A DNA stretch of 64,000 nucleotides from an uncultured bacterium (GCA_963736115.1 CAVTNR010000012.1:92147-156146); one strand, 5' to 3'; positions 3,275 to 33,180 are shown, numbered from the stretch's first letter. Program-made: numbers and translations. The notes: a model not told the origin generated them from the letters alone.

Positions 3275-6184
3275 TTATTTGATATACGCCATCCTCCCCG
3301 TCCGCACGCCGGTTCCGGCTTCCAACCGGTACAGATAAACCCCGCTCGATAGTGCATCCGGGCGCCATTCGACATGGACCACACCGGGCTCCATGACCCG
3401 GTCGAGCAACAGGCATACCTCCTGTCCTCTGAGATTATAGACGGCCAGCCGGACAGCCGTTTTGGACGGAATCCGAAAATGGATGATCGTTGCCGGATTG
3501 AACGGATTGGGATAATTCCCGGCCAGGATGAAATCCCGGCCCGCAGGCCCGGCCGGCTCCCGGATCCCGCTCACCGGTGTGACGCCCGGCACTCCCCCCA
3601 CGCGTAAAGTGGGATCTCCGAACAGCGTGTATTTGAAAGTCTGGTGAAACCGGGCGAGTGGCGTCCAGTCCCAGATATCCGCCGTTCCCGGAAAACCGGA
3701 AGTGTCCGTGTACTCATGGGGCGTAATCGCGTGAATGGCATGCTCTGCGGTATACGTGGAAACCGCGTATTTCCACATGTCGCCGGCCAGGCGGTACCCT
3801 TTTGTGAAGGCCTCGAAAAACCAGGTGCCGTGGTCCTCTCCGGGACTCTGCATGCCGGTATTGGCGCCGTAATAAACGATGGCGCCCCTGTCAGGGTGCC
3901 TGCAGATCAAGAATTCCGGGTACGATCCGTCCTTGTCCCCCGGCTGCAGCGGATCCGGAACCGGCGGGGAACCGTCGCTGTTTCTGGACATGTTCGTTCC
4001 GGTCCCCGTGCTCTCATACAGATATCCATTGTACCGGACGCCGTCCGATCCGGTGAAACCCTGGTGCAGGAGATTGGTCGGCGCATACTCGCCCGCGCCG
4101 CATCCCGCGTGGAAAACAACGGGCAGTTTCTCCCGGCACACGCGCCAGTCGTCGTGAGCGCCCATGCCCCAGGCGCCGTGCCCGTTGTAGAGCAGAAATC
4201 CCATGCCTTTCAGGGAGCCGTTCACGAATACCGCGGGATCGATCGGCGTGTCCGCCGGATGCTCCGCATGCGTTTCATTGAACCCCGCGGCGGTCATGAG
4301 GGCTGATGTTTTCCGGGCGGCCTCGACCCACGAGGTCCAGTCCTGGTTGGCCAGGGTGTAGGAATCATTGAACCACCAGGCGTGGAACGCCCTGGACTCG
4401 TACTGCAGAACCTTGTGGATGTAATTCTGCGCCTCCTGGACGTTCGAGCAGGGAATCCGGCCCACGGCCACTTCCGGATAGACATGGAGGTTTTCGGGAT
4501 TGATGTCGTTCTTGTACATCTCGGCAAAATACCCGTCTCCGTCCGCATCCCAGTCGTGGAACTTTCCGTCAGCGTCGTATAAATCCGCGTAATAGAGATC
4601 CGTGGCAAAATAATTCGGCAGAAACATCAGCATGGCTTCGGTGGTCGAGTCTCCGGCGCTCCAGTTCCATCCCCAGCCGGGCCTGTCCAGAAATTCCTCG
4701 GGGAAGAAGTCTCCGTTCTCATACCCCGAAAGCGTGAAACGGACGGGCAGGAGCTCGGAATCTCCGAACAGCATCACGTGGCGCACATTATAATACCGGT
4801 AGTAGAAGTCGATCCCCTTCTTGATGCTCTCAGCCGAATCTCGGCCGTCGGTCATCGTCTGTACGTCCACCACATAAGTCCGGATCCCGGTGCTGTTTTT
4901 CCAGTCCACCAAAGGCTGAAGGGTTTCGATGAAAGGGGCGGCGGTCACGATCAGCAGATTCGCCGAAGTGACGTTCCAGGGCGCGTCGAAATACAGGCCG
5001 TTCCGGTCCGCGCCGGCGAAAATCGCGCCCCCGCCGGACGACCAGTTGCCGGGGGAATACACCAGTTTGGGCGCCACGTCCTCGGGCCAGGACGTGATGT
5101 CCGAGTCATTCACCGCCGTTTTCCCGTGCCATTCCGCCGGATCCGCGGCCGACGCCCACTGCCAGTACAGCGTGCGGCTCCTGCCCTCGTCGTCCCGTAT
5201 GTACAGCAGGTTCACGTATTCATTTGGCGTTTCGCGGTAGTTCTCGATGTCTGAAACATATTCGTCCACATTCAGGGAATCGGCGATCCAGATCTCGGAC
5301 GGCAGGAACCCGCTGGTGACGCAATCCTCCACCAGGTCGACCTGGTGGTCCCCGCGGTCGATGTTGAACATCGTCCAGGCCGTCAGTTCGTCGATGTTTG
5401 CCGCCGCCACATGGGGATCGTAGCGCACTTCCGGCAGGCTGGTCGCGGTCGAGGCCGTCTCCCAGTCGCTCCCTCCGTTGGGGGATATCATCACGGTGGT
5501 GTGATATCCCGACTCCTCAAAACCGCAATACCCGAGGCAGAGAATATGCTTGGGATTGACATCAATACTCACCCGGGTGCCGGATCCGGCCCGCCAGCCG
5601 AAGGTCCGTTCATGGCAGACCGTCCAGGCATGCAGGGTCAAGAACGAGCACGTCGCGGCTCTCAGCCGCTTGGAAACCGCGTCGATTTCCTCGAGCCAGG
5701 CGGCGTAGTACAGGTCGTTCATCCGGCATGCGTCGAAGCTGTTCTCGATAACCGGCCTGTCGCTGACCGCCATGACCACCATTGCCGGGGCCGAGGCCCA
5801 GGTTCTGGCGTCCTCCCAGTTCAGCCTGAAACAGACCAGCTTGCCGGAAAAGGGCGAATTCGGATTGGGCTCGCGATAAAAAATGACGAGGTGTTTCTCC
5901 TCGTCATGCACGATCAGCTTGAATTTTTTGATGGAGTGATAACTGTTCATCCGGTACAGTTCGTTCCAGGAGTATCCCCGGTTGCGGGACTCGTAGACGA
6001 TGATTTCAGTTCCGTTCTCTGGCTGAAAGACGACGAACATCGTGCCGTCCATGGCGTAATCGGCATCGAAGGTGCGCACATCGCCTTCCGTCCATATCGG
6101 GATGTCCAGGCCCCAGGCGGCCACCTCTGCGGGAATGCATGCGGCGAGACACACGCAGAGCAGGATCGGAAAAGTCTTTTTCAT
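3275..6184 (-). CDS. secreted peptidase C25 (gingipain-like) family protein with T9SS C-terminal sorting domain
   Basis: signal peptide; region LLIVTAAPFIETLQPLVDWKNSTGIRTYVV...HVMLFGD resembles C25 propeptide/catalytic N-terminus; NGHG and HAGCG motifs; C-terminal YPNPFNPATII...GVYLYRL = Por secretion tail. Confidence 0.65.
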   Translation of the reverse strand: MKKTFPILLCVCLAACIPAEVAAWGLDIPIWTEGDVRTFDADYAMDGTMFVVFQPENGTEIIVYESRNRGYSWNELYRMNSYHSIKKFKLIVHDEEKHLVIFYREPNPNSPFSGKLVCFRLNWEDARTWASAPAMVVMAVSDRPVIENSFDACRMNDLYYAAWLEEIDAVSKRLRAATCSFLTLHAWTVCHERTFGWRAGSGTRVSIDVNPKHILCLGYCGFEESGYHTTVMISPNGGSDWETASTATSLPEVRYDPHVAAANIDELTAWTMFNIDRGDHQVDLVEDCVTSGFLPSEIWIADSLNVDEYVSDIENYRETPNEYVNLLYIRDDEGRSRTLYWQWASAADPAEWHGKTAVNDSDITSWPEDVAPKLVYSPGNWSSGGGAIFAGADRNGLYFDAPWNVTSANLLIVTAAPFIETLQPLVDWKNSTGIRTYVVDVQTMTDGRDSAESIKKGIDFYYRYYNVRHVMLFGDSELLPVRFTLSGYENGDFFPEEFLDRPGWGWNWSAGDSTTEAMLMFLPNYFATDLYYADLYDADGKFHDWDADGDGYFAEMYKNDINPENLHVYPEVAVGRIPCSNVQEAQNYIHKVLQYESRAFHAWWFNDSYTLANQDWTSWVEAARKTSALMTAAGFNETHAEHPADTPIDPAVFVNGSLKGMGFLLYNGHGAWGMGAHDDWRVCREKLPVVFHAGCGAGEYAPTNLLHQGFTGSDGVRYNGYLYESTGTGTNMSRNSDGSPPVPDPLQPGDKDGSYPEFLICRHPDRGAIVYYGANTGMQSPGEDHGTWFFEAFTKGYRLAGDMWKYAVSTYTAEHAIHAITPHEYTDTSGFPGTADIWDWTPLARFHQTFKYTLFGDPTLRVGGVPGVTPVSGIREPAGPAGRDFILAGNYPNPFNPATIIHFRIPSKTAVRLAVYNLRGQEVCLLLDRVMEPGVVHVEWRPDALSSGVYLYRLEAGTGVRTGRMAYIK

Positions 6185-6493: not shown

Positions 6494-7450
6494 TCATGGA
6501 TACCACTGTCCGATAAAATAAACACCGGCGTCCTCTTCCGAGAAAACGGCCTGACGGCATAGAAATTCAGGGGGGAAATAATCGGGCGTGATGTTCCGGT
6601 TATTCGACCCGTCCGCATCCATCATGTACATGTCGTACTTCCCCGCTCCGGAAACCGCCGCCACGATGTAGACGATCCGATCATCCGTGGCGGACCATTC
6701 GGGCAGGCCCTGGGTGCAGGCTGTATGTGTCAACCGCGACTCCTGAAACCCCGCCGAATCGACCTTGAAAATGTCATACCCGCCGTTGGCCTGGCCGGCG
6801 TCCACCAATCGTTCGAAAACGACCCTGCTTCCATCCGAATTGAACCTGGGATCGTAATCCCCGGCCGGCAGATTGGCGCTCCCCCATTCGCCGGCATTCG
6901 GCGGGTCGGTCAGCCGCCGCGGATCCGTTCCATCTTCGCGAATCGTCCAAAGTTGACTGTCCCGTGTAAAGACGATCCGGCCGCCGCTTCCCCAATTCAC
7001 GTCCGCGTCATGGGTTCCGGAATCATAAAACAGCCTCTGATGGCCGCCGTTCGAGTCCATCATGAACAGATCCAGTGTCGATTGCATCGAAAGATAGACG
7101 ACCCGGCCCCCGTCCGGTGCAAAACCGGGATACACGTCCATGGCGCCGTTCCGGGTCAGGCGGGTCAATCCGGATCCGTCCACGCCGATCGTCATGATTT
7201 CATAATGGATGTCCGCATCCCCTTCGGCTTTCTGCGCAAATGCCAGCTTCCGGTTGCGGCGGTCCAGAGACAGGCCCTGGATACTCCGATCGTCGTCGTG
7301 AATCAGCGTGACATTTTCGGAGGTCAAATCCAGGCGGTAGATGCCCCAGTCCGATTCATGCGTCACGCTTTTACGCTCCGGAGACGTGGCTTGCTTGCAG
7401 GAACACAGAACCACCAGACAAACGGCCGAGAGAAGGATCCTGATTTTCAT
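6494..7450 (-). CDS. TolB-like WD40/PD40 beta-propeller lipoprotein
   Basis: ATG 7450 with GGAGG RBS; lipobox LCSC; repeated PD40-like segments. Confidence 0.6.
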   Translation of the reverse strand: MKIRILLSAVCLVVLCSCKQATSPERKSVTHESDWGIYRLDLTSENVTLIHDDDRSIQGLSLDRRNRKLAFAQKAEGDADIHYEIMTIGVDGSGLTRLTRNGAMDVYPGFAPDGGRVVYLSMQSTLDLFMMDSNGGHQRLFYDSGTHDADVNWGSGGRIVFTRDSQLWTIREDGTDPRRLTDPPNAGEWGSANLPAGDYDPRFNSDGSRVVFERLVDAGQANGGYDIFKVDSAGFQESRLTHTACTQGLPEWSATDDRIVYIVAAVSGAGKYDMYMMDADGSNNRNITPDYFPPEFLCRQAVFSEEDAGVYFIGQWYP

Positions 7451-15085: not shown

Positions 15086-15445
15086 CTACTTCAGAACCAG
15101 CATTTTTCGGGTTTCCACACCTGAATGGCCCGCATTCAGTTGAATAAAATACGCGCCGCTCGGCAGGTTGTCTGCGTAGAACCGGATGGAATGTGTTCCT
15201 GCGGTCTGAATCTCATTCATCAGAGTCCGTATGTCTTTTCCGTATAGGTCGACTATTTTCAATCGGACCGGCCCTGTTTTCTGCAGATCGTATGTGATTA
15301 TGGTTTCAGAATTGAATGGATTGTGATGATTGGGATGCAGTCTGAATGAATTGCCCGCTTCGGAGGCTCGTTCGTAATCCCACTGTTGATCGAGTGTCCG
15401 AAGGCGACCAGTTAGAGCCAGGCGGTTCCATCCAGACTCGACCAC
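15086..15445 (-). pseudogene. remnant 3' end of a T9SS cargo gene (isolated C-terminal sorting domain)
   Basis: HPNHHNPFNSETII...GAYFIQL = Por secretion tail with only about 35 codons upstream; adjacent DNA upstream (15520 onward) switches to low GC. Confidence 0.5.
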
Positions 15446-15691
15446 GGGACGGCCCAGATTCCGGCCATGGCGCCCGGATCATCGTTGTAACGCGGAACCA
15501 TCCCATGCTTATTGATTAATTTGTGTGTCGTTGGTCTCAGCGATTACATCGCGCATCTTTCACATTCGTTGGTCGTAACCATCCACCTCTTTCCGATTCC
15601 GATAATCGGCGTGGATCTGAATTATTTCATCATACTGCAATGGATGGGGCAAATATATCATTCCTTTTACCGCCGGGTAAAATGAGCAAGA

Positions 15692-16366
15692 TCATGGTCT
15701 CGGTTTTTTTGGTAAAATGAAAGATGTTTTCGATTTGTACGTTCGATATGCCTCGCCAAATCGAAGCTCCAATTCCCGCTCCTCATACACTTTTAGAAAG
15801 ACGAGCCATGCCGGTGTCACTAAAATCAATATCCAAATTATAAAAAACGTTGACTGCAGCCACAAACCCAACGCCACAAGACAGGACAGCAAGGCCAAGG
15901 CCATCGGATTCCGTGTCCAGGAATATAACCAATCTGTTGCGAGTCGACGACTGAGAGATATGGCAAATGGCGCTCCCAGTCCTCGCAGGGCAAGATTGAC
16001 CACCGTGAGCAGTAAAAAAGCTCCTGTAATTAAAAACAGGGTTATCCCAAGAGTATGTGAAATCGGAATGGCAACTCCCTGCCAGGTGTCGTTCGTTTTG
16101 ATCGCCATTATAATCCCGGTCCCAAATAACAACATCAAGCCTGCATGTACAAATGAAGTTATATATTCGACTCGGTGTAACGACGGTCTCCTGTCGAGAA
16201 GTTGGCGACCGATCACGACTGTCGGGAATGTGGCAAATATAGTTCCGACAATACAAACAAGATTCACCATGGTCGAAAATGATTGCTGAAGGATCCAACT
16301 CCAAAATATCAGGGTACATGCAAAAGTGACAACTTGTATCAGGGTTTGAGTCGTTTTATGCATCAT
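15692..16366 (-). CDS. isoprenylcysteine carboxyl methyltransferase (ICMT/PEMT) family membrane protein
   Basis: C-terminal EERELELRFGEAYRTYKSKT motif (EE..L..FG..Y..Y) typical of ICMT family. Confidence 0.6.
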   Translation of the reverse strand: MMHKTTQTLIQVVTFACTLIFWSWILQQSFSTMVNLVCIVGTIFATFPTVVIGRQLLDRRPSLHRVEYITSFVHAGLMLLFGTGIIMAIKTNDTWQGVAIPISHTLGITLFLITGAFLLLTVVNLALRGLGAPFAISLSRRLATDWLYSWTRNPMALALLSCLVALGLWLQSTFFIIWILILVTPAWLVFLKVYEERELELRFGEAYRTYKSKTSFILPKKPRP

Positions 16367-16475
16367 CGATCTCCAAGATACAGATCAAGGTTCGGCACTT
16401 TGGTTATCACCCAAGATGGCCGATAACGACGCGGTTTTATCTTCCAGTGGAAGGCTTTTTTTAGAATTTCTCCGG

Positions 16476-17165
16476 TTATTTCTTTTCACTTCCAATCAGT
16501 CGATAGATAACAGCACCAAGCATACCGCCGATGATAGGGGCCACCCAGAAAAGCCAAAGTTGTGAAATCGCCCAATCGCCGGCAAACAGGGCGACGCCGG
16601 TACTGCGCGCAGGATTCACCGAGGTGTTTGTAACCGGGATGCTGATCAAATGAATGAGAGTCAGGCAGAATCCGATGGCGATGGGCGCGAAACCCTCTTG
16701 TGCACGTTTATCAGTGGCGCCCATGATGACAAGGAGAAACATCATGGTCATGACCACTTCAGTGATCAGGGCAGCAGGCAAACTGTAACCGCCGGGCGAA
16801 TGAGTACCGTAGCCATTTGAGGCAAAGCCGGTGGATAAATCAAAACCTGCCGTACCCGAAGCAATCAGATACAGAACGCCGCCTGCGGCCAATCCGCCCA
16901 GAACCTGCGAAACGATGTAAGGCAGCAGCTCTTTTGCCGGGAAAGGACCGCCGGCCCAAAGGCCTAATGAAACGGCCGGGTTGAGGTGACAGCCTGATAT
17001 ATGCCCGATGGCGAAAGCCATCGTGAGCACGGTCAAACCAAATGCCAGGGAAACTCCGAGTAGACCGATACCGACATCCGGAAACGCAGCAGCTAATACG
17101 GCGCTTCCGCAGCCACCAAGAATCAGTCAGAATGTTCCAAAAAACTCCGCGCCATATTTCTTCAT
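16476..17165 (-). pseudogene. aqpZ: aquaporin Z with in-frame TGA at conserved Trp codon 13 (pseudogene, sequencing error or readthrough)
   Basis: two NPA motifs (NPAVS, NPARS); N-terminus [20 protein letters not shown] matches AqpZ ECFGTFWLVFGGCGS with TGA (17129..17127) replacing TGG; RBS GGAGATAA before ATG 17165. Confidence 0.7.
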
Positions 17166-17196
17166 GATTATCTCCTTTTTAATATTAATTATTATG

Positions 17197-17290
17197 CTCA
17201 ACCGGCAGGCTGAGCGGGCGGGCATGATCGGTTTCGGATTGCTTGCCCCTCCCGGAAGTGATAACTGAGTACCGTCCGCCCTACTGTCAT
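17197..17290 (-). repeat. attC-like imperfect palindromic repeat A
   Basis: shares 28-bp identical core gcgggcgggcatgatcggtttcggattg with repeat B; inverted gggcgg/ccgccc arms. Confidence 0.5.
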
Positions 17291-17315
17291 ATCATATTTG
17301 CTTAATCCCATCTTA

Positions 17316-17422
17316 CACATAACTGCAAATGTGCGGGCGGGCATGATCGGTTTCGGATTGTTCGCTTCTCAGAGAAGTCAAGACTGATTAGGGCACCGTC
17401 TGCACTATTTTTGGGTTAGGCG
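17316..17422 (-). repeat. attC-like repeat B (R'' GCCTAAC on minus strand, R' GTTATGT)
   Basis: starts caTAAC, ends GGTTAGGC on + strand; immediately downstream of cassette ORF 17440..17820. Confidence 0.55.
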
Positions 17423-17439
17423 ATTGTCTCAAATCTCCC

Positions 17440-17820
17440 CTAACAATTCGCGGTTTTGATGAATAGAAAAAATGCATAACTAATCGCTAGGAGACCATAC
17501 AAGGCCAAACTAAACCAGCCAAAAATATTCACAGTTCCGGTAAACTGAAACTCAATCGATGCAATACACCCGATTACGTCCTGAATTAAGAGAGCGATAG
17601 CGATTGCTCTACGCGTATCAACAGATGTAACTCTCTTTCCGTAATACATGAGAGTCGCTAAACCTAGAATCGACCCACCTACTAAGCGAGCTGTCCAAAT
17701 GGCTGCGTCATCGGGAGCAAGACCATACAATTTGAAAACCCAATGAGGAAAAAGAGAACACGATCCGCCAAAGAATATGGCAAAAAATATATTTATAGAG
17801 AAAAGATGACGCAATTTCAT
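17440..17820 (-). CDS. cassette-encoded small membrane protein
   Basis: ATG 17820 with GGAGGTAAT RBS; 4 hydrophobic helices; low GC. Confidence 0.5.
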   Translation of the reverse strand: MKLRHLFSINIFFAIFFGGSCSLFPHWVFKLYGLAPDDAAIWTARLVGGSILGLATLMYYGKRVTSVDTRRAIAIALLIQDVIGCIASIEFQFTGTVNIFGWFSLALYGLLAISYAFFLFIKTANC

Positions 17821-17904
17821 ATTACCTCCGTATAATTTCAGCATAAACCGATAATAAATTGTCGTTTGTACTAACAATGTCTTCTAAATATCTTCCCGAC
17901 ATCC

Positions 17905-18028
17905 GCCTAACATAATCATCCCGGGGTGGACATTATCGGTAACGGATTGCACATCCTTTAAAAAGCCACAACTGAGTATGGGCACCGTCCGCCCGAGATG
18001 CAGGGCAGCGAATTTTAAAAAGTTAGTA
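17905..18028 (-). repeat. attC-like repeat C (R' GTTAGGC canonical core on minus strand)
   Basis: GCCTAAC at 17905..17911 and GTTAGTA at 18022..18028 abutting stop of ORF ending at 18015. Confidence 0.55.
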
Positions 18029-18349
18029 TTTTTTCTGACCATTCGATCATTTTAACACAATCTACCATTGTTGATAGCGGGCATGCATCAGTACCATCTT
18101 TATTGCGAGTTTTAAAACATGTCCCACATGCAAGGATATTTCCACCTAGTTCGATGAATTTTATGAGTTGTTCATTTACATTATACTTATCATGAGTCAA
18201 TCCTTCACATTCAACAGCCTCCCCCATAAGAAATATTTTCAGTGTATGTCCTTCTATAATTGCTGTAACCCCGAATCGAAAAGCATTCCAAGCTTTTCAT
18301 ATTCCTTAGTTTCTAAAATAATTCCAATTTTAATTTGATTGCCTTTCAT
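18015..18349 (-). pseudogene. DsrE/DsrF-like (DsrE_2) family gene, frameshifted
   Basis: N-terminal MKGNQIKIGIILETKEYEKLGMLFDSGLQ in one frame, continuation AIIEGHTLKIFLMGEAV...ACGTCFKTRNKDGTDACP in another; break near 18265. Confidence 0.45.
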
Positions 18350-18387
18350 TAAGAATCTTAACTGTATTCATAATCTAAATGATCTAT

Positions 18388-18495
18388 GCCCAACGATGCG
18401 CATGACCGGCGGGCCGCTTTAGGTTACGATTTGCAGGGCCTTCCCGAATTAACTACTGAGCAGGGACACCGTCCGCTCGATGCGCTGGGTTAGCC
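18388..18495 (-). repeat. attC-like repeat D (R'' GGCTAAC, R' GTTGGGC on minus strand)
   Basis: cccAACgatgcgcatgac ... cgctcgatgcgctggGTTAGCC; abuts stop at 18500. Confidence 0.55.
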
Positions 18496-18499
18496 AAAT

Positions 18500-19920
18500 T
18501 TATCTAAAAATACCCTGTATATAACCAAAAACTTCCTTGGGTTGATTAAAAAGTTGATCGAATAATAACTTTATTGAGAAATTCGGATATTTTCTCACGA
18601 GTCTCCAAATTCTTGAACTATTCTTGAATATTTTAAATGCAATTTCATCTCTTAATTTTTCAAGATCGTCTGCTGTTAGGTGATTTGTCTTCACATTTGC
18701 ATGAAACAGGTCATATCTTGAATAGTCGTATTTATTGGTAATTAATTCGCACTTTAATAGTTCTTCGCGAATTTCAGTTTTAGGAAATGGTGTCAGTATT
18801 AGAAAAAGCGGAATATCTACATCAATTTTGTTGGCATAATAAAAATTTTCATAAACACTTTCACGCGTATCATCCGGGTTCCCAATTATAAACGATCCAA
18901 TGACTGTGATACCATAGCCCTGTAACTCATTGATAATATCTTTAGTCTCGGAATGTTGGATTTTTTTTGCATCTAAAAAATCAATATTTTTAGTACTGAC
19001 ATTTTCAATCCCAAGAAAACATATATTTACACCTGCCTCAGACATTAGCTTCAGCAAACCTGGTGCTCGTTTTAGACCAGGAATGCTTGCCTGCACAGCA
19101 TACTTTATATCATTCAACTTATTATTGAATAATTTCCTTACAAAGGTTTTCAAAACGAATAGCATCCACTGTAATATTATCATCAACAATGAGAATTGCT
19201 TGAGCTCCATGATTACGAGCATCCATAATATCTTCGATAACTCGTTCAATCTTATATTTTCTAAATGTTGTACCGTACATTTGACGGATACTACAGAACT
19301 TGCAATGATTTACACATCCTCGCGATGTTTCAATAACATCAGCAGGAGTTCCTAAAATATGAAATCCCTTTTTTGAAAACACGATTTGATCTATCGGGAA
19401 TTTTTACATGATCCAGATCAAGAATTTTACCTTGTGGATTATGGATAATAGTGTCCTTTTTTATATATGAGAGGGATGGAATATCCTCATATTTTCCATC
19501 ACTTTGAATTTGTTCTATCAATAGGTTGAATGTGATTTCACCTTCATTCCTTATAATGAAATCGATGTTCTGTCCGTGGGGGCCAAGAAATAGATTTTCA
19601 AACTCGACCGTGGCATGATAGCCGCCCCAAATAATTTTTATTTGTGGGTTATATTCTCTAACCACTGTGGCAAGTTTCATCGTATCTTCATATTGAAAGG
19701 TCATACAACTGAATCCGACAACATCCGGATCATAGACTTTGAGATAATTTAATAAATATTGACTTGGTTCATTTTTTGCCAAAACCAGATCCAATATCTT
19801 TACATAGTTATTTTCACCAGAAATATTAGCAGCAATAGAATTCAAACCCAGATTGGGAAGTTTTGTAACTCTATCGAATCCAATAATTGTTTTAGGGCTA
19901 CTTAAGAGTAATATTCGCAT
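18500..19920 (-). pseudogene. B12-binding domain radical SAM protein, broken into three ORFs by two frameshifts
   Basis: ORF 19339..19920 = B12-binding domain; 19122..19382 carries CVNHCKFC (CxxxCxxC) radical SAM core; 18500..19249 = remainder; junctions lie in A/T homopolymer runs. Confidence 0.6.
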
Positions 19921-19948
19921 GGTGATTTCGATTTAAATTAATTTTTAT

Positions 19949-20055
19949 GGCTAACGATGCGTTTGAGCGTGCGGGCATGACTGCTATCGGCCTGAAGATC
20001 CTTCAAGAAGCCACAACTGTGTAGGGCACCGTCCGCTCAAGGTGGGGTTAATGGC
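19949..20055 (-). repeat. attC-like repeat E (R' GTTAGCC on minus strand)
   Basis: GGCTAACgatgcgtttgagcgtgcgggcatgac ... ggcaccgtccgctcaaggtggggttaatgg; arms are reverse complements. Confidence 0.55.
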
Positions 20056-20093
20056 TTTGCAGTTTCTTTCATTATAATTTTAATCAGTAATTT

Positions 20094-20786
20094 CTACAAA
20101 ATTTGATAACAAATCGATAGATATGGATATATTTGATCAATTTTCATGAAACCATATATGTTTGGATCATTTATGGGGTCAACCGGATTGATATCTTTTT
20201 GTGCTCTCAGGCTTTTTATGTCCTGTTTTTTTAATGAATATCTTATCCCAATAGGAATACTTAATCTATTCGATATTTTGAATTTAATCTCTCCGTAAAA
20301 ACAGCCAGTCCGCTTTTTTAAATTATTTGTTTCTGTATTTGTTGAAAATCCCAAATTTGTTGGCAAATAATTGGATTTCAATTCATATCCATTGAAAATG
20401 ATTGATCCACCAAATTTTAATTTGAAAATAGTGTTTAAGTCACTCTCAAAATAAATCGCAGGCTGAAATTGATAAATGGATAACTTTTTATCGAGACTCC
20501 GTACGTCGGAGAAAGAAAGTTTTTGAATAGATGATAATGGTAAATAATCAATTCGAAAGCCGAAACCAATTTGATCATGATTATTCGTATAGATACTTTT
20601 ATTTATTTCAATTCCAAAATATAGTTTATTCCAAGTCACCTTGATATCTTTGGGCTGTTCCATGTTGAATTTTGGCTCTGTCGATAATCCATTAACTCTA
20701 TTTAACAGAAAGCCAACATTTATACTATTTGAAAATGCTTGATGATATAAAATCACTAAAATGATCAGAAAAGTCTTTTTATACAT
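20094..20786 (-). CDS. cassette-encoded secreted beta-rich protein, unknown function
   Basis: ATG 20786 with GGAGGGATAAT RBS; signal peptide MYKKTFLIILVILYHQAFS; Asn/Tyr/Phe-rich alternating pattern. Confidence 0.5.
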   Translation of the reverse strand: MYKKTFLIILVILYHQAFSNSINVGFLLNRVNGLSTEPKFNMEQPKDIKVTWNKLYFGIEINKSIYTNNHDQIGFGFRIDYLPLSSIQKLSFSDVRSLDKKLSIYQFQPAIYFESDLNTIFKLKFGGSIIFNGYELKSNYLPTNLGFSTNTETNNLKKRTGCFYGEIKFKISNRLSIPIGIRYSLKKQDIKSLRAQKDINPVDPINDPNIYGFMKIDQIYPYLSICYQIL

Positions 20787-20805
20787 ATTATCCCTCCATT
20801 CATTG

Positions 20806-20913
20806 CCATAACGGTCTGCGCATGAGCGGCGGACGACGTTAACCAACGGCTTGCAGAAAATCAAAGAAGCCTATGCAAAGCAGGTTTCCGTCCGCTCAAT
20901 GCGCGGGTTCGGC
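20806..20913 (-). repeat. attC-like repeat F (R'' GCCGAAC on minus strand)
   Basis: TAACggtctgcgcatgagcgg ... ccgctcaatgcgcggGTTCGGC; arms complementary with one bulged A, as in attC extrahelical bases. Confidence 0.55.
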
Positions 20914-20944
20914 AAAAATCAATGTGTTTATTTGTATTGTTACT

Positions 20945-21220
20945 TTAGATATTCTGACGCGTATGAATTACAGCTAGAATATCGATTTGGTCAGGTTTAA
21001 CAAAGTAGATGATACGGTATAATCCTTCAAATACTTCTCGGATTTGTTCCATTTCATATTCAGGAACTTTTCTGCCAGATAATGGAAAATCAGCTATTTG
21101 AATGGATCGTCTAGTAATTCGGTCGACCGTCTGTTTTGCGTATTCTGGGGAATCAAGAGATATATATGAGTAAATGGCATCGAGATGGTTCTCCGCCGTT
21201 TCTGTCCAGAAGACTTTCAT
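20945..21220 (-). CDS. ParE/RelE family type II toxin
   Basis: 92-aa ORF with plasmid-stabilisation ParE/RelE fold motifs; overlaps upstream antitoxin by 4 nt. Confidence 0.7.
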   Translation of the reverse strand: MKVFWTETAENHLDAIYSYISLDSPEYAKQTVDRITRRSIQIADFPLSGRKVPEYEMEQIREVFEGLYRIIYFVKPDQIDILAVIHTRQNI

Positions 21221-21405
21221 CACGTTAAACCATATTTATCTCTTAATTCACTTACATCTTTTACTTTTCCCGATTTACTGTCTGAGAGACCTTTTTCGAT
21301 TACTTGACGCACATAAATTTCGTAGATAAGATCATCCCATGTTGAATTATCCGGCATCTTATCTATAAGTTTATGGGCGTCATCTTTAATAATTGAAGTT
21401 GGCAT
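21220..21405 (-). CDS. putative addiction module antitoxin component (TIGR02574-like)
   Basis: 61-aa ORF immediately upstream of toxin with 4-nt overlap. Confidence 0.55.
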   Translation of the reverse strand: MPTSIIKDDAHKLIDKMPDNSTWDDLIYEIYVRQVIEKGLSDSKSGKVKDVSELRDKYGLT

Positions 21406-21627
21406 ATTATCCTCTCATTTGAATTCTATAATAATATACAGCTATTATTTTGAATTTTCAATATTTAATAGCCGAACCTATTATTATACGGCCAATTCCC
21501 CAACAAACCACATTTCTTGATACAGGTATTTCTTGGCCTCTGGAGGAAGAAAAAACTGAAATGGCTGATACAAGGCCTTTAATGTTTCTCTATGCATACA
21601 TTTTCCTGAAAGAGGCTATATCCAGTA

Positions 21628-22065
21628 TCAGTCATGTTTTTCAACTATCCGCATTTCAAGCCCCAATGACCTGACCTCGCTCAGCGGGACCATCCATACT
21701 TGCCTGTCCGGATCCCACTTTCCGCCCGCGCATTTCACCAGTATTCTGAGGTATTTCTCTCCAAATCCGATCCGAAGAGCGACCCTATTATTCGGCGGAG
21801 GTGCAGACGATTTCGGCGCCCAGGCCTGTTTATCAATCAGGATTTCAACCGTTTTCGTCTTTTCCCCGGTCTCTGAATCGTACCGATACCGTACGCAGAT
21901 CAGGCGATCGCCGTACTCGCGCAGTTGTTTCTTCGATCCCGGGCGGCCGGGCAGTATTTTTTTCGTGAACCGCATGGAATTACCGATAGGATTGCGGGAG
22001 TTTCCGCGTGCCGGAAAACCGGAAATCGAAGGCCGGGGAGACCGCGCGTTGCGGTTTCTTCGCAA
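21628..22065 (-). CDS. hypothetical protein with DUF5710-like C-terminal motif (AGGKWDP..QVWMVP)
   Basis: high-GC ORF at island edge; motif resembles C-terminal domain found on plasmid primases; weak. Confidence 0.3.
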   Translation of the reverse strand: MRRNRNARSPRPSISGFPARGNSRNPIGNSMRFTKKILPGRPGSKKQLREYGDRLICVRYRYDSETGEKTKTVEILIDKQAWAPKSSAPPPNNRVALRIGFGEKYLRILVKCAGGKWDPDRQVWMVPLSEVRSLGLEMRIVEKHD

Positions 22066-22375
22066 AGGAACGTCCGGACGGGATGGTTTCCGCTGGACAT
22101 GGGCTCCCCCCTTCCGTTGAAGTGCGTGATGGATAACAGAAGGACTTTATTGAACTTGGAATATTATACAAATTGATACTTATAAAAACAAGATAAATTT
22201 TGATATTCAGGAGCGATTCTCAAGGGAAGACGGATCGCCGCAATAAGGTCCTTCGGGTGTAAAGCATGGGAGCGGCGCTCAGGACGACGAGAAATGGCCC
22301 GCCTCTTGTCAACTCCCTGGCTGAGTTCTGGTAAAACCAGAACTCAGCCGTCCCCCTTTCAGGGGGACATATCAT

Positions 22376-22446: not shown

Positions 22447-23640
22447 TTACCATCTCCCGTAATACGGCGCGCCGGGCTCGCCCATGTCGATTCTGTGGAC
22501 GTTTCCGGCCCCGTTGATGAGCATCATGGCATACAGATAATTCCCGGTTCCCCAGACGGTCTTTTCGATCCCGGTTGTCAGAATGCCTTTGTAAAAGGCC
22601 TCCTGGGTTCCATCCGGGTTCAGGACAAAGACCGGGTTCACGTTGTCCGTGGAGATGAAAATCTGGCCGTCCACGGAAAAGGCCATGTCCTTGAATGCGG
22701 CCGTGTTGTACGGCGCGATGGCGTTGGCCTTGTCGAGCACCAGCTCGCGTTCGCCCAGGGTGCCGATCGCGTCCATGATCGGGTGCCGCCAGATCGCGGT
22801 CTGGGTTTTGGTTTCAACCCAGACATAGACGAATCCGTTGAAAACGCGGACGTCCTTGACATCATCGCTGGCGTACAACCCGATGGCCGCATTGGAGCCG
22901 TCCGGCTGGACGACGAAGAGATCGGCCGACTTGCCGGACATGTACAGAATGCCGTTCGAATCAAAGTCGCCCACCGAGATTTTCTTCTTCATGGTCAGCC
23001 ATTTGGCTTCGGTCCCATCCGCGGGGTTCCACTTCGCGACCGCCGTGCTGTTCGCGAACACCACGATGGTGTTGTCCGGCGCCAATACCGCGTCCGTCAG
23101 AACCTTGGTCACGGTCCCGGCCGCCGTCTTTTCTCCGGACGGCGTGACCCGGACCACGCTCAAATCGGCGAAAAAGGCATAGAGGTTCTCTTGGCTGTCC
23201 AGCGCGATCGCCTTGATTACCGTGCCCTCGAGGAACTGGCCGTACTCGGCTTTCACCGGGTCGGTGGTGAATAGCAACGGGGCCACAGCCATGGACAAGG
23301 CGTCATACGAAACGACCTTAATCGATACCGTTCCGGTCACGGACGGCCGCCGGACCGTCAGGCTGGTCGGCGACGCGGCGATCAGGTCGGCCTCGCTGGA
23401 GCCGAAATAAACCTTGTTCCGGTCTATCGTCGCCCCGAAGTTCCGGCCCTGCAGGACGATCGTGTTCACGCCCGCGGTCGCGCGGTCCGGAACCACGGCC
23501 GTGACGGCCGGAGCCGCGGGAATCGTGACTGAATCGTCGTATCTTGGCTCGGCCACGTTGTATTCGCATCCCGCCGCGGCGAGCAGAAGGACCGCGCAGG
23601 CCGATGCCGGCAGGATCCAGCCGTATTGAAAGCGTTTCAT
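22447..23640 (-). CDS. IPT/TIG domain plus beta-propeller lipoprotein (copy 1)
   Basis: lipoprotein signal LLLAAAGCEY; IPT/TIG-like segment then repeated propeller blades. Confidence 0.6.
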   Translation of the reverse strand: MKRFQYGWILPASACAVLLLAAAGCEYNVAEPRYDDSVTIPAAPAVTAVVPDRATAGVNTIVLQGRNFGATIDRNKVYFGSSEADLIAASPTSLTVRRPSVTGTVSIKVVSYDALSMAVAPLLFTTDPVKAEYGQFLEGTVIKAIALDSQENLYAFFADLSVVRVTPSGEKTAAGTVTKVLTDAVLAPDNTIVVFANSTAVAKWNPADGTEAKWLTMKKKISVGDFDSNGILYMSGKSADLFVVQPDGSNAAIGLYASDDVKDVRVFNGFVYVWVETKTQTAIWRHPIMDAIGTLGERELVLDKANAIAPYNTAAFKDMAFSVDGQIFISTDNVNPVFVLNPDGTQEAFYKGILTTGIEKTVWGTGNYLYAMMLINGAGNVHRIDMGEPGAPYYGRW

Positions 23641-23655
23641 CTCATTCTCCTTGCC

Positions 23656-24672
23656 TTAGAGGGAAAAGCGCGCCGTCATGCGCTGGACCTTGTCAAACAC
23701 CCCGAACGGCGTCATCGCGTAGTCGAACGACGCCCCGTAGCGCCGCACGCCCAGGCCGAACGTGAATCCGTCCTCGACGTTGTTCGACACGTAACCGCCG
23801 CGCACCAGAAGCGTCTTCAGAAGACCGTATTCCACCCCCACCTTCAACTGCTCCGGGTGGTCCCGGTGATGGCTCGCGTCCACGCTCACCAGAAGGCTCT
23901 GGTCCAGAGGCAGGTCCTCCACCAGGTCCAGAACGTCCATCGAGATCCCCAGGTTGAACACCAGCGGAAGCTGGAATCCCTCCTCCACGTACTCGATCTC
24001 CGTCGAAAAGTTCCGAACCGACATGCCGAACACCAGGCTCTTGAAGCCCGTCTTGAACTGCGTCCCGAAGTCAAACGCCATCGGCGTCAGGCTGTTTTTC
24101 ACCGTCACCGCCGTCGTATCCAGCGCCGCAGAAACCCGGGGCACCACGCTCTCGCCCAGGTCCTGGTGAACCCAGCGGACCTGGCCGCCCACGCTGAAAC
24201 GGTCCGTCAGACGCTTCGCGTATCCCACGCCCGCCGCCCACGCGCTCAGCTGGAACTTCCCCGTGTCACGGAATCCGTCCGGAGCGGTCTTGTCCACCAC
24301 CGTCCCGTAAAAATCCCCGTAGTCCACGTTCTGGAAGCTCACGCCCAGCACCCCCCACTCCCCCTTCGCCGGGCTCAGCGTCAACGCCACCGCGTTGTGC
24401 TTGATGTCCGCGATCCACGTGTTCTGGCTCGCGCTCACGTCCACGAACACGCCCTGGTTCGCCATGCCCGCGGGGTTGAAGAACAATGACGAAGACCCCG
24501 CCTCCAGGCTCGTCAGCGCCTCGGCCATAGCCGCGCCGCGCGCGTCCGACACCACGCTCAAAAACTGAAATCCCGTCTGCGCCAGCTTCTTGTTCCCCGC
24601 CTCCGCTCCGGACCCGAAACCAAGCACGCCCAGGCAGAGAACGCAGATTCCGATTTGATTGCTCTTGTTCAT
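23656..24672 (-). CDS. PorV/PorQ family T9SS-associated outer-membrane beta-barrel protein (copy 1)
   Basis: N-terminal FQFLSVVSDARGAAMAEAL...FFNPAGMA resembles PorV signature PFLLISPDARSGGMGD...WNPA; alternating beta-strand pattern; C-terminal F. Confidence 0.6.
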   Translation of the reverse strand: MNKSNQIGICVLCLGVLGFGSGAEAGNKKLAQTGFQFLSVVSDARGAAMAEALTSLEAGSSSLFFNPAGMANQGVFVDVSASQNTWIADIKHNAVALTLSPAKGEWGVLGVSFQNVDYGDFYGTVVDKTAPDGFRDTGKFQLSAWAAGVGYAKRLTDRFSVGGQVRWVHQDLGESVVPRVSAALDTTAVTVKNSLTPMAFDFGTQFKTGFKSLVFGMSVRNFSTEIEYVEEGFQLPLVFNLGISMDVLDLVEDLPLDQSLLVSVDASHHRDHPEQLKVGVEYGLLKTLLVRGGYVSNNVEDGFTFGLGVRRYGASFDYAMTPFGVFDKVQRMTARFSL

Positions 24673-24688
24673 CTCTCGTCTCCTTGCC

Positions 24689-26842
24689 TTAGCGTATGAC
24701 CACGAACTTCCGGATCACCGATTCCCCTTTACTGAACCCCGCCCCGTCCTCCGTCACCTCCACGTACAGCAGGTAGATGCCGCTCACGATGATCTGGCGC
24801 GACGATGTCATCGAATCCCACAGCTCGTCGCCCGCGCCGTTCGTGTGCTCTTTTGACCAGACCAGGTCGCCCCGCTCCGTGTACACCCGCACCTTGCACC
24901 GCGGCGGCAGGCCGTAGAACGCGATGCGGTCGTACTGCGACTCGTCCCCGAACTGGAACATCCGCGACCGCAGGTCGTAGGGGTTCGGCACCACGCGGAC
25001 CTGCGAGAGGCTCGTGCCCGCGGGTTTCAGCAGGTTGGCGGGCCGGCTCGTCAGGGTCCAGAACAGGCCGCTCAGCAGAGTGCGGTTCTCCTGCGTGCCG
25101 TCGTCCTTCGATTGAATCGCGTAGTAGTAGTCGAATCCGCGCGTGGCGGTCGTGTCGTTCCATTCGTTCACCGCGTCGGCCGCGCCGCACTCGAACACTG
25201 TCTCGTACCGCGAATCAACGCCGAGCACCGTGCCCACGGCCCGGCTGATCACGTAACCGCCGAAATGCGGGTCAGACTCGGCGTTGTCGGCCCAGGTGAG
25301 CTGGATACGGTCGCCGCCCGAACGGACCGTGAACCACTTCGGCGGCGGCGGCGGCTGGGGCAGAGACCAGCCGGATTCATAGTTCCTCACCGCGTTCCGG
25401 TACATGGCCAGCACGGAGTCCACGCCCGTGAACACCCACGCCTTTTTGTACGCGTTGTGGTCCGCCGTCTCGGAACCATCGGGCATCACGAGGCTGGGCG
25501 AGGCCGTGTTGTTGCGCCACTGCAGCCAGTTCCAACCCACTTCGCGGTTCTTCTCGCGCCCGATGCCGTTCACGCCCTCGGCGAACACGATGCGGACGCT
25601 GTCGCCTGGCGCCAATGTATAGGGCCCAAAGCCCTGGCCCTGGCTGGTGCCGCCTCCGCCCTGGCGACGGGCGTCGGTCAGGGTCATGGCGTAGTTGTTG
25701 CCGATCAGTTCGTCATGCGCCTGGGACGCATGGCCCTCGCTCATAACGCCGTAGCGGATGCCCATATAACTTTCATCATACTGGCTGACATTGGCGCTCA
25801 TGCCCACGATGTCGCCGTCCGAGGCGATGTACCAGGTGGTCTTCGGCTGGGTCGCATCGTCGTCTTGATTGGACGGCGACTTGTCCGCGTGCAAGGTGAC
25901 GGAGCCCGCGAACTTGGCCGAACCCATGAGCCCGTCCTCGTTCTCGTTCGGGCATCCCCAGTCCTCATTGTAACTGACATTCTGCCGGTCGTCCTCGGGC
26001 CCGTAATAGGAGTAATAGCCGCGCATGCCGAAGGTCGGCGAGGACGGATTGGTGAAGGACGCGGCCGCGGGATCCCAGTTGAAGGCATGGTTCAGCGTGC
26101 CTTCTCCCCAGACCGTGTTGAACGCGCCCCAGCCCAGGCCGAACCCGGGGCAGGCTTCACCCGCGAAGGCGTAGCGGACCGTGAAATACACCCAGAGGTC
26201 CTGCAGCGTCTGCGGATAGACCGTGCCCTCGCGGTCGATGATGCCCGTGTTCTTGAATACATAATCGTGGACATAGTAATCGTCCTGGTCGGGACTGGTG
26301 AAGGCCATCACCTTCTTGGTGACGGACACGCCGATCGACGTGTTGAACCGGACAAGCACCATGCGGTCGCAGGGCAGGTTCTCGTCCAGGCTGTCGAGTA
26401 CGTCGTAGGTATCCAGCACCGTGGCCAGGTTGTCGTCCACCGACACCACCGGGTGATAGTCCTTTCCGATCAGCTTGATCTCCTTCTCGAAGATCATGTT
26501 GACCCGCTCTTCGGGATTGCGGGGGCCGGATCCGATCACCTTGACGCTGAGCGTGCGGCCCAGACGGGACTCATGAAAGTTCTTCGCCCCGATCCAGAGT
26601 CCTTTCTGGCGCACCGTGTTCTGCTCGATGCCGTACTGGGCGGGCCAGGAGAAATGGTTCGTGTTGCCGACCTGGGATTCACTCTCGTACTCCGAGCCCA
26701 CCTCGTTGACGAAAGACTGAAGCTGCCCGACGCGGAGCCACCGGACATCCTGGGAGAAACCGGCGCCGGCGAAGACTGTCAGGGCCAGCGCCGCCGTCCC
26801 GATCCAGAGGCCACGGCCGAACTTTGTTTGTTGCGATTTCAT
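24689..26842 (-). CDS. secreted surface protein: novel N-terminal domain + poly-Pro linker + FN3-like + T9SS-type C-terminal domain (copy 1)
   Basis: start chosen at MKSQQTKF (26842) with signal peptide, 20 nt after TBDR stop; C-terminal VPNPYD...SGIYLLYVEVT matches Por tail pattern. Confidence 0.6.
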   Translation of the reverse strand: MKSQQTKFGRGLWIGTAALALTVFAGAGFSQDVRWLRVGQLQSFVNEVGSEYESESQVGNTNHFSWPAQYGIEQNTVRQKGLWIGAKNFHESRLGRTLSVKVIGSGPRNPEERVNMIFEKEIKLIGKDYHPVVSVDDNLATVLDTYDVLDSLDENLPCDRMVLVRFNTSIGVSVTKKVMAFTSPDQDDYYVHDYVFKNTGIIDREGTVYPQTLQDLWVYFTVRYAFAGEACPGFGLGWGAFNTVWGEGTLNHAFNWDPAAASFTNPSSPTFGMRGYYSYYGPEDDRQNVSYNEDWGCPNENEDGLMGSAKFAGSVTLHADKSPSNQDDDATQPKTTWYIASDGDIVGMSANVSQYDESYMGIRYGVMSEGHASQAHDELIGNNYAMTLTDARRQGGGGTSQGQGFGPYTLAPGDSVRIVFAEGVNGIGREKNREVGWNWLQWRNNTASPSLVMPDGSETADHNAYKKAWVFTGVDSVLAMYRNAVRNYESGWSLPQPPPPPKWFTVRSGGDRIQLTWADNAESDPHFGGYVISRAVGTVLGVDSRYETVFECGAADAVNEWNDTTATRGFDYYYAIQSKDDGTQENRTLLSGLFWTLTSRPANLLKPAGTSLSQVRVVPNPYDLRSRMFQFGDESQYDRIAFYGLPPRCKVRVYTERGDLVWSKEHTNGAGDELWDSMTSSRQIIVSGIYLLYVEVTEDGAGFSKGESVIRKFVVIR

Positions 26843-30927: not shown

Positions 30928-32148
30928 TTATCTGAACATCCCGACCGGCGGCGGCGCCGGGCCGAAATCCGGTCCCATATCGATCCGGATCAGGTCTCCC
31001 TTGGTCCCGACGAGTTGGAGCATGTACGCATAGCGGCTGTTTCCCCGGACCAGCCGCTCCGCGCTCCCCTTGATGATGCCCTTGTACCAGGTGTCCAGTG
31101 TCCCGTCCGCCTTCATCAGCAGGATGGGGTCGGCCGCGTCCGTGGCCACGTACATGTCGCCCGAGGCCGAGAACATCACGTCCTTGAACGCAGCGGCTGA
31201 AAATACGCCTGAAGCGGCTCGGTCCAGCACCGTTTCCCTCGGCCCGAGCGTTCCGGCCGCGTCGAGTATCGCGTGGCGGTACACGGCCGCCTTCGGCTCA
31301 ACGGTGGCGTGCTCCGCCACCACGTACACATAATTTCCATTCACCCGTATCTTCTTCACATCGTGAGTGGCATAAACTCCGAGCGCCGCTGAAAACGTCC
31401 CGTCCGGATACGACACGTACAGGTCGGTGTTCTTGGCGGCCATATAAATGTTGCCGTTCGCGTCCGCGTCCCCGACCGTGAAGCGTTTCGGCGCCTTCGC
31501 GACCCATTCCGTTTCCACGCCGTCCACCGGGTTCACCTTCGAGATCTTCGCATTGTTGCTCAGCAGAACCAGGCTTTGGTCCGCGGCCGGAATCACGTCC
31601 GTCACGCCCCGGAGCGTCGATTCCATGAAAACACTCTGCGTGCCGTCCGAAGCCACCTTGAACGCCTTCATCAGGCCGGTTCGGAAAATGTAGATGTTCT
31701 CCGCCGCGTCTACCAGGATCGCGTTGTTGGCCGCGCCGTCGATGAAGCCGCCGTAGGGCTCCGCCACGACGTCGACCGGGTATCCTTCGAAGCTTCCGAC
31801 CTCCAGCGCGCCCAGGGTCACCACTTTCAGATTCAGCGTCCCGGATACCGCCGGCCGCCGGATCAGAAGGGAGGTGGCGGTCGCGGAAATGATCTCCGTC
31901 TTCGCGCCGTTGAAATACACCCGGTTGCTGTCCGGCACGGGCGAAAAACGGTCGCCGCGTATCGTGACGGTATTCACGCCTGCCGTTGCCCGGGCGGGTT
32001 CCAGACCGGTCACCGACGGCCCCAGTTTCGCGGCATGGTCCTGGTACCACATGGGCACGGGCGAGTCGTATTCGCATCCCGCCGCGGCGAGCAGAAGGAC
32101 CGCGCAGGCCGATGCCGGCAGGATCCAGCCGTATTGAAAGCGTTTCAT
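30928..32148 (-). CDS. IPT/TIG domain plus beta-propeller lipoprotein (copy 2)
   Basis: first 27 aa identical to copy 1, remainder paralogous. Confidence 0.6.
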   Translation of the reverse strand: MKRFQYGWILPASACAVLLLAAAGCEYDSPVPMWYQDHAAKLGPSVTGLEPARATAGVNTVTIRGDRFSPVPDSNRVYFNGAKTEIISATATSLLIRRPAVSGTLNLKVVTLGALEVGSFEGYPVDVVAEPYGGFIDGAANNAILVDAAENIYIFRTGLMKAFKVASDGTQSVFMESTLRGVTDVIPAADQSLVLLSNNAKISKVNPVDGVETEWVAKAPKRFTVGDADANGNIYMAAKNTDLYVSYPDGTFSAALGVYATHDVKKIRVNGNYVYVVAEHATVEPKAAVYRHAILDAAGTLGPRETVLDRAASGVFSAAAFKDVMFSASGDMYVATDAADPILLMKADGTLDTWYKGIIKGSAERLVRGNSRYAYMLQLVGTKGDLIRIDMGPDFGPAPPPVGMFR

Positions 32149-32163
32149 CTCATTCTCCTTGCC

Positions 32164-33180
32164 TTAGAGGGAAAAGCGCGCCGTCATGCGCTGGACCTTG
32201 TCAAACACCCCGAACGGCGTCATCGCGTAGTCGAACGACGCCCCGTAGCGCCGCACGCCCAGGCCGAACGTGAATCCGTCCTCGACGTTGTTCGACACGT
32301 AACCGCCGCGCACCAGAAGCGTCTTCAGAAGACCGTATTCCACCCCCACCTTCAACTGCTCCGGGTGGTCCCGGTGATGGCTCGCGTCCACGCTCACCAG
32401 AAGGCTCTGGTCCAGAGGCAGGTCCTCCACCAGGTCCAGAACGTCCATCGAGATCCCCAGGTTGAACACCAGCGGAAGCTGGAATCCCTCCTCCACGTAC
32501 TCGATCTCCGTCGAAAAGTTCCGAACCGACATGCCGAACACCAGGCTCTTGAAGCCCGTCTTGAACTGCGTCCCGAAGTCAAACGCCATCGGCGTCAGGC
32601 TGTTTTTCACCGTCACCGCCGTCGTATCCAGCGCCGCAGAAACCCGGGGCACCACGCTCTCGCCCAGGTCCTGGTGAACCCAGCGGACCTGGCCGCCCAC
32701 GCTGAAACGGTCCGTCAGACGCTTCGCGTATCCCACGCCCGCCGCCCACGCGCTCAGCTGGAACTTCCCCGTGTCACGGAATCCGTCCGGAGCGGTCTTG
32801 TCCACCACCGTCCCGTAAAAATCCCCGTAGTCCACGTTCTGGAAGCTCACGCCCAGCACCCCCCACTCCCCCTTCGCCGGGCTCAGCGTCAACGCCACCG
32901 CGTTGTGCTTGATGTCCGCGATCCACGTGTTCTGGCTCGCGCTCACGTCCACGAACACGCCCTGGTTCGCCATGCCCGCGGGGTTGAAGAACAATGACGA
33001 AGACCCCGCCTCCAGGCTCGTCAGCGCCTCGGCCATAGCCGCGCCGCGCGCGTCCGACACCACGCTCAAAAACTGAAATCCCGTCTGCGCCAGCTTCTTG
33101 TTCCCCGCCTCCGCTCCGGACCCGAAACCAAGCACGCCCAGGCAGAGAACGCAGATTCCGATTTGATTGCTCTTGTTCAT
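32164..33180 (-). CDS. PorV/PorQ family protein (copy 2, 100% identical to copy 1)
   Basis: identical 338-aa ORF. Confidence 0.6.
   Translation of the reverse strand: MNKSNQIGICVLCLGVLGFGSGAEAGNKKLAQTGFQFLSVVSDARGAAMAEALTSLEAGSSSLFFNPAGMANQGVFVDVSASQNTWIADIKHNAVALTLSPAKGEWGVLGVSFQNVDYGDFYGTVVDKTAPDGFRDTGKFQLSAWAAGVGYAKRLTDRFSVGGQVRWVHQDLGESVVPRVSAALDTTAVTVKNSLTPMAFDFGTQFKTGFKSLVFGMSVRNFSTEIEYVEEGFQLPLVFNLGISMDVLDLVEDLPLDQSLLVSVDASHHRDHPEQLKVGVEYGLLKTLLVRGGYVSNNVEDGFTFGLGVRRYGASFDYAMTPFGVFDKVQRMTARFSL

Follow-up and report, generated by a model that had tools for sequence, protein, structure and literature searches.

A probable chromosomal-integron cassette array without an adjacent integrase gene, keeping its platform gene, in an uncultured bacterium

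We analysed a stretch of 64,000 nucleotides from an uncultured bacterium (GCA_963736115.1 CAVTNR010000012.1:92147-156146; hereafter the window, in whose coordinates all unprefixed positions are given) and conclude, with a probability of about 0.92, that an island at 15-22 kb is the cassette array of a chromosomal integron with no integrase gene beside it, carried by a bacterium of the Fibrobacterota-Chlorobiota-Bacteroidota (FCB) group. Read along the minus strand, the locus runs from a promoter-like site through a 115-aa gene (ORF115) and a presumed attI site to six cassettes, each with an attC site, and then to an aqpZ pseudogene and a PEMT-family gene that have no attC. The GC content is 33-49% across the island and 58-66% on either flank, as had been seen in a preliminary description of this DNA, which reported a low-GC island between high-GC DNA. 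The same description had read the island as an integrase-less cassette array, and our data support this through the layout and covariation of the attC sites, their single orientation, a link to an integron integrase (IntI) in another genome, breakpoints at GTT and the finding of no tyrosine recombinase encoded in the window.

A cluster of attC sites lacking an integron-integrase, or CALIN, is a class defined for IntegronFinder (Cury et al. 2016, PMC4889954). The island resembles the members of this class in having at least two attC sites on one strand, cargo of cassette type and no intI within 4 kb (in the window, none within 64 kb). It differs from them in keeping attI and a conserved platform gene; accordingly it is an integron lacking its integrase, not just a group of attC sites or a fragment detached from an array. 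The kind of element is ordinary, as integrase-less arrays are known and fairly common, and the call itself, one further such array in a poorly known uncultured lineage, is routine; the family of the 115-aa gene is the sole item that is possibly new. The host appears from its genes to be an unclassified, uncultured, high-GC member of the FCB group with a type IX secretion system (T9SS), components of which are encoded in the window. A CarB fragment at the window start is 58-60% identical to its best-scoring organism-named matches, which come from Bacteroidota, Ignavibacteriales and Gemmatimonadota.

The attC repeat family

The repeats were searched for with a family-specific covariance model (R1), built from eight clean copies including relatives from other contigs and run with all search filters off. 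It finds exactly six matches in the 64 kb, all on the minus strand, with scores of 45-91 bits and E <= 2e-9, and because the next-best match reaches only 11 bits (E = 2) the family is real, confined to the island and unidirectional. The six palindromes of about 100 nt in the preliminary description are therefore all present, each within a few bases of where it had placed them, and the terminal heptamers that it had assigned as inverse cores and cores are correct on the strand of the open reading frames (ORFs). From the attI side, the sites are attC F (20806-20913; 84 bits; GCCGAAC...GTTATGG), attC E (19949-20053; 53 bits; CATTAAC...GTTAGCC), attC D (18388-18495; 60 bits; GGCTAAC...GTTGGGC), which is the most canonical copy, attC C (17905-18010; 51 bits), attC B (17317-17421; 91 bits; GCCTAAC...GTTATGT) and attC A (17196-17297; 45 bits). 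AttC A ends in an R' box GTTGAGC and is missing R'' together with about 5 nt of the 5' arm; attC C has the R' box GTTAGGC and is probably inactive, since its R'' box is degenerate (TGC replaces AAC). A scan of the window against Rfam gave no match to the repeats. Palindromes of the form AAC...GTT were also sought ad hoc, once by aligning the arms and once by constrained folding; in DNA of 62% GC neither scan was discriminating, and the true attC sites were not ranked at the top.

The termini were judged against the top-strand consensus of an attC site, which runs, 5' to 3', from RYYYAAC (R'') to GTTRRRY (R'). Four to six of seven positions are complementary in sites B, D, E and F, all of which end in AAC...GTT, while A and C keep R' only; across the wider family, the AAC/GTT pairs are retained in 13-15 of 17 members. 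Within these boxes the R''-L''...L'-R' layout is present, and in every copy a short spacer is left unpaired, 2-3 nt facing 3-5 nt. Going inward from the R box, the spacer is followed by two 6-bp helices, separated by a single unpaired base of the top strand, and then by an unpaired A and three pairs. Sites D (first bulge C) and F (first bulge T) show this layout cleanly, bulges included, and in both of them 6 bp separate the first bulge from the A. The minus (ORF) strand has its bulged bases in the 5' arm, which corresponds to extrahelical bases in the 3' arm of the bottom strand. AttC F forms a long hairpin with bulges whichever strand is folded (z = -3.2 and -2.4). In 17 members of the family, drawn from five contigs, pairing was found in 79% of cells, against 33-40% with the partner column slid; compensatory double changes occur at 13 of the 20 pairs, and none of 500 shuffles reaches the observed values. 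This covariation supports a shared, predicted attC hairpin, and with it the R''-L''/L'-R' arm architecture that had been proposed for the repeats.

The structural reference for such sites, attC aadA7, has two extra bases on the top strand (C and A) 6 bp apart, which appear as G and T on the bottom strand. AttC D is like it in its 7-bp R box, its unpaired spacer and an L box with C and A 6 bp apart. The window sites differ in being about 105 nt long with a conserved central part (attC aadA7 has 60 nt), in a shorter spacer (2-3 nt in the top arm) and in that clean bulges are not found in all copies. The Vibrio cholerae VCR (V. cholerae repeat) arrays, which are sedentary chromosomal integrons with homogeneous attC sites, are a second point of comparison. 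The window array shares with them a chromosomal location, a single attC family, a toxin-antitoxin cassette and cargo that is mostly of unknown function. It has six attC sites only, however, with pairwise identities of 41-64% (mean 56%) where VCRs are much more alike, and it differs further in having no integrase and several decayed cassettes; a 28-nt core is common to A and B only. The earlier statement that the repeats are nearly identical was therefore overstated, and the comparison with VCR-like arrays drawn from it was too strong.

Each of the six sites belongs to one cassette and all share one orientation. The preliminary description had noted a minus-strand ORF before at least five of the repeats, and ORFs do precede F, E, D, C and B; none stands in front of attC A. 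This arrangement bears on whether the repeats could instead be a family of repetitive extragenic palindromes (REPs) or miniature inverted-repeat transposable elements (MITEs), or transcription terminators, in an acquired island that is no integron. The repeats are GC-rich imperfect palindromes that lie between genes as REP elements do, and no integrase is in view. Their confinement to the island in one orientation, with one copy at each ORF 3' end, nonetheless speaks against such an origin, as does the fit of their termini to integron core and inverse-core motifs, and no T-tract follows them. No copy lies outside 17.2-20.9 kb in the 64 kb, and those present are on one strand; repeats scattered outside cassettes, which the preliminary description had named as grounds for abandoning its reading, were thus not seen at this scale. 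Given also that a near-identical copy stands in an array beside a genuine IntI and that breakpoints against a related lineage fall exactly at GTT (both described below), we consider a REP, MITE or terminator family highly improbable.

Platform, attI and the integrase

A related lineage is represented by seven Joint Genome Institute (JGI) metagenome contigs (L004-L010). Between L004 and the window, an upstream gene with a TIG domain is 77% identical in nucleotide sequence, ORF115 is 93% identical at the amino acid level and the attI stretch is 88% identical in nucleotide sequence. In the window the attI region occupies 21471-21627 on the minus strand, and the 88% identity extends up to 21475; there the alignment stops, within GTTCGGC in the window and GTTATGC in L004, and the sequences are unrelated beyond. 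We read the site at the head of the array as a predicted attI because homology stops at G|TT, with a conserved platform up to that point and variable cassettes after it. Its core would be GTTCGGC (21477-21471, minus strand), with the crossover placed between G21477 and T21476. In a third contig, L003, from a metagenome-assembled genome (MAG) from Zodletone, the equivalent downstream of intI is an AT-rich region ending ...TAATAATAG/TTATGC.

Beyond attI, L004 carries nine unrelated cassette genes, among them genes for a DUF6326 protein, a protein with a metallo-beta-lactamase fold, a methyltransferase and a HigB/helix-turn-helix (HTH) pair; every one of the nine has an attC after it, and several of these sites are picked up by R1. 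The first cassettes of the two lineages differ and are joined exactly at GTT, and no cassette is shared except for one displaced unit: the 3' part of the window ParE gene plus attC F is 83% identical to L004 6458-6733, a truncated ParE cassette at another position in its array, and this homology ends in the attC R' sequence GTTA. The two loci together have what defines a cassette array, namely one attC in the same orientation at each ORF 3' end and variable content at a fixed platform.

No integrase gene was found at the window locus. In a tblastn search of the 64-kb window with the IntI of L003, the best match has E = 0.059 and lies far from the array; no gene for a tyrosine recombinase was found in the window, and apart from the TIG gene terminator the interval between ORF115 and the TIG gene consists only of about 250 nt that contain no remnant of an integrase. 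The locus is hence not a complete integron, in which intI would adjoin attI and the cassettes, and it has the composition of a CALIN: six attC sites and no intI match better than E = 0.059 in 64 kb. The earlier remark that no integrase was in view is borne out over this whole distance.

The repeat family is nevertheless linked to an integrase elsewhere. Scanning species-representative genomes with a pattern derived from the repeats matched three contigs (L001, L002 and L003). L001 and L002 carry further arrays with attC sites of the window family. L003 encodes a 337-aa IntI that matches TIGR02249 at 455 bits (cut-off 265), and on one strand there follow, in order, a 166-aa ORF related to ORF115, an attI-like AT-rich region, a cassette and an attC. 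This attC next to IntI is 92% identical over 95 nt to attC E of the window. By this similarity the attC family of the window is linked to a genuine IntI in another genome.

In integrons, the bottom strand of attC forms an extruded, single-stranded hairpin, whose R and L boxes and extrahelical bases are recognised by IntI. The enzyme releases a cassette by recombining two attC sites (attC x attC) and integrates it at attI by recombining attI with attC (attI x attC). The bottom strand of attC is here the plus strand of the window. The window cassettes would have been brought in by an IntI since lost from the locus or encoded elsewhere. A possible cassette promoter is suggested by a promoter-like TTGTTT-17 nt-TATAAT (22163-22191, minus strand), read from the sequence, which lies upstream of the 115-aa gene and points towards attI. 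The arrangement is conserved in four lineages (window, L004, L014 and L003); a consensus promoter scan does not list it, because its -35 hexamer matches at only three of six positions. Transcription from this site may run through ORF115 into the array.

A third lineage, L014, whose TIG protein is 91.5% identical to that of the window, has the same integrase-less arrangement, and the series TIG gene, terminator, promoter, ORF115 and attI without integrase is common to all three lineages (window, L004-L010 and L014). Similarity along this series is incongruent: L004 is 72% identical to the window at the amino acid level in the TIG protein and 93% in ORF115, while for L014 the values are 91.5% and 79%. 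This suggests that platforms may have been exchanged between lineages.

These comparisons raise the question of whether the platform is still active, being served in trans by an IntI whose gene lies at another place in the genome or on a visiting element. Such activity would refine our interpretation of the locus as an integrase-less array rather than replace it. The integrase-less platform persists in three lineages, yet the first cassettes of the window and L004 differ and are joined at GTT, while attI (88% in nucleotides) and ORF115 (93% in amino acids) are conserved; moreover, half of all CALINs are found in genomes that encode IntI (PMC4889954). However, many of the window cassettes are decayed, and the incongruent similarity of platform and flank means that homologous exchange of whole platforms may explain the different arrays without a local IntI. 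Service in trans is a serious possibility, though less likely than not. The decayed cassettes and the two defective attC sites argue for limited recent activity, and at least the distal part of the array would be a fossil, because the radical SAM gene, a 70-aa gene remnant, aqpZ, attC A and attC C are all decayed. If established, the occurrence of an integrase-less attI platform in three lineages with different cassettes would be relevant to the question of whether CALINs are dead or are kept in use by an integrase acting in trans.

Several observations weigh against the identification of the island as an integron array without integrase. Clean extrahelical bases are found in attC D and F only, B and E being mismatched at the second position, and attC A and C are without an intact R''. 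The search for intI spans only 64 kb of the source contig, which is listed at 446 kb. Finally, the distal limit of the array is uncertain because aqpZ and the PEMT gene have no attC.

The 115-aa gene family

ORF115 (21628-21975, minus strand) lies immediately upstream of attI and its product is identical to protein P0001. It is 40% identical to the 166-aa ORF of L003 (872-1372), which lies between intI and attI, and has relatives at L013 (1669-2013) and at the further loci L014-L093. The family has a length of about 110 aa and the signature YGDRLICVRYRYD. No curated family matched ORF115, and a weak match to DUF5710 is seen in the C-terminal half of 11 of 21 relatives. An AlphaFold (AF2) model with a mean predicted local distance difference test score (pLDDT) of 85.8 has two small alpha/beta domains, and a comparison of this model with the PDB found no similar fold. 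The GC content of the gene is host-like, with a third-position value (GC3) of 0.60.

Relatives of ORF115 occur on at least 584 metagenome contigs, of which 80 were examined and 58 were informative. At 24 of these 58 loci the ORF115 relative is immediately preceded, on its own strand, by an IntI-like gene, 55-65% identical to the IntI of L003, the two genes being 3-173 nt apart. A divergent recombinase gene lies upstream at six, only a weak (30%) recombinase match is found downstream at three, and the remaining 25 have no recombinase. At L013, intI is followed by a 114-aa relative of ORF115, direct repeats and cassettes that have their own attC family, starting with GCCTAAC. R1 gave only one weak match across the 80 other ORF115 loci, from which it appears that the other lineages use other attC families.

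Chromosomal integrons in which integrase and cassettes run in the same direction ('reverse' integrons) are known from Treponema denticola and its relatives (PMC3607928). The integrons with an ORF115-type gene differ from those in having a conserved gene of about 110 aa between intI and attI, and in their host lineages (the FCB group and other uncultured bacteria). Our literature searches, which were not exhaustive, found no account of a conserved gene in this position. It is conceivable that ORF115 is a fixed component of the intI-attI interval in a large clade of same-direction integrons, acting as a recombination accessory factor, a regulator or the carrier of the cassette promoter, and that platforms consisting of ORF115 and attI persist without a resident integrase while still exchanging cassettes. 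We offer this as a tentative proposal that, taken as a whole, is rather unlikely to hold. That many environmental integrons of the same-direction type have a conserved small gene in the intI-attI interval may nevertheless mean that a component of the integron platform has so far gone unstudied.

Two further contigs carry ORF115 relatives without an adjacent intI, followed by small genes on the same strand (L012 3185-5078 and L011 3071-3132), and weak R1 matches (E 0.25-0.9) fall exactly in their intergenic gaps. These loci are possibly further integrase-less platforms. A protein encoded on one of the two contigs is assigned by NCBI to Pelobacter propionicus.

Cassettes and the distal edge

All six cassettes are read on the minus strand. 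Cassette 1 (20812-21476) comprises a 61-aa putative antitoxin gene (21220-21405), an ORF that overlaps the start of the toxin gene and has no family match, a gene for a ParE/RelE-family toxin (20945-21223; PF05016, 62 bits) and attC F. Toxin-antitoxin cassettes of chromosomal integrons commonly carry their own promoter, and the consensus scan lists a sigma-70-like candidate, TTGAAA-17-TATATT, at 21461-21433. In cassette 2 (19955-20811), attC E is preceded by a gene for a 230-aa protein (20094-20786) with a signal-peptide-like N-terminus and a sub-threshold match to TonB_dep_Rec_b-barrel (E = 0.0046). Cassette 3 (18394-19954) holds a pseudogene for a B12-binding radical SAM protein (18500-19920; PF02310 and PF04055), which is spread over three frames (ORFs 19339-19920, 19122-19382 and 18500-19249) and is followed by attC D. 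Cassette 4 (17911-18393) has a 70-aa gene remnant (18015-18227) that overlaps attC C; the frame upstream of it contains stops, and there is a weak YedF-like match (E = 0.0034). A 126-aa hydrophobic protein without a family match, which we read as a membrane protein, is encoded in cassette 5 (17323-17910; gene 17440-17820) before attC B, and cassette 6 (17202-17322) is ORF-less and consists of attC A alone.

Past the last attC, the aqpZ pseudogene (16476-17165, minus strand; NF003838, 327 bits) starts 30 nt beyond the R' box of attC A, in the manner of a cassette gene. An in-frame TGA at codon 13 falls exactly at a conserved Trp of AqpZ, which is most simply explained by a TGG to TGA change that made the gene a pseudogene. 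The interval after it (16367-16475) has no R1 match and no attC-like fold. The next gene (15692-16366, minus strand) encodes a PEMT/ICMT-family methyltransferase (PF04191), and neither R1 nor folding found a recognisable attC for it. The gene is 76% identical in nucleotide sequence, over the coding sequence only, to one on contig L094. As this homologue lies between two attC-like repeats that share 85% identity, the gene is cassette-borne elsewhere, and in the window it looks cassette-derived. The preliminary description had proposed two degenerate repeats downstream of aqpZ and of the ICMT-family gene (16380-16475 and 15555-15610). Neither gave an R1 match, and folding yielded only small local hairpins (z -0.6 to -1.8); both candidates were rejected. 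On L094, different and longer attC-like repeats of about 230 nt (4815-5100 and 6698-6921) flank the PEMT gene and a gene for a 159-aa protein, and the L'' part of this repeat family (CCCAGCGCATGAACCGGACGG) resembles that of the window attC family.

The composition of the cassettes bears on how the array was assembled, since a donor of low GC content might have contributed the whole 6-kb block at once, for example if platform and array were replaced together by homologous recombination, with no one-by-one insertion in the present host. The central cassettes have a GC content of 33-35% against 62% in the host, and the phylogenies of platform and flank are incongruent, both of which a single acquisition would accommodate. 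The cassettes differ among themselves, however, with aqpZ and the PEMT gene at about 49%, and the GC content of the platform gene is that of the host. We regard a single acquisition as unlikely, and it would leave the identity of the element as an integrase-less integron array unchanged.

The distal edge of the island is marked by a truncated gene (15086-15445, minus strand) for a T9SS C-terminal sorting domain standing alone (PF18962 on residues 42-116 of a 119-aa ORF), without the N-terminal part of a protein. A 1014-aa T9SS substrate gene that follows the L004 array was considered as the parent of this fragment and rejected, no similarity being detected there.

Two other features lie on the far side of the platform. 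A segmental duplication of 2.1 kb (23546-25637 and 32054-34157; 90% identity) includes a PorV-like gene, and each copy is followed by a gene for a TonB-dependent receptor (26.9-29.9 kb and 35.4-38.5 kb), the two receptors being paralogues with 67-73% identity.

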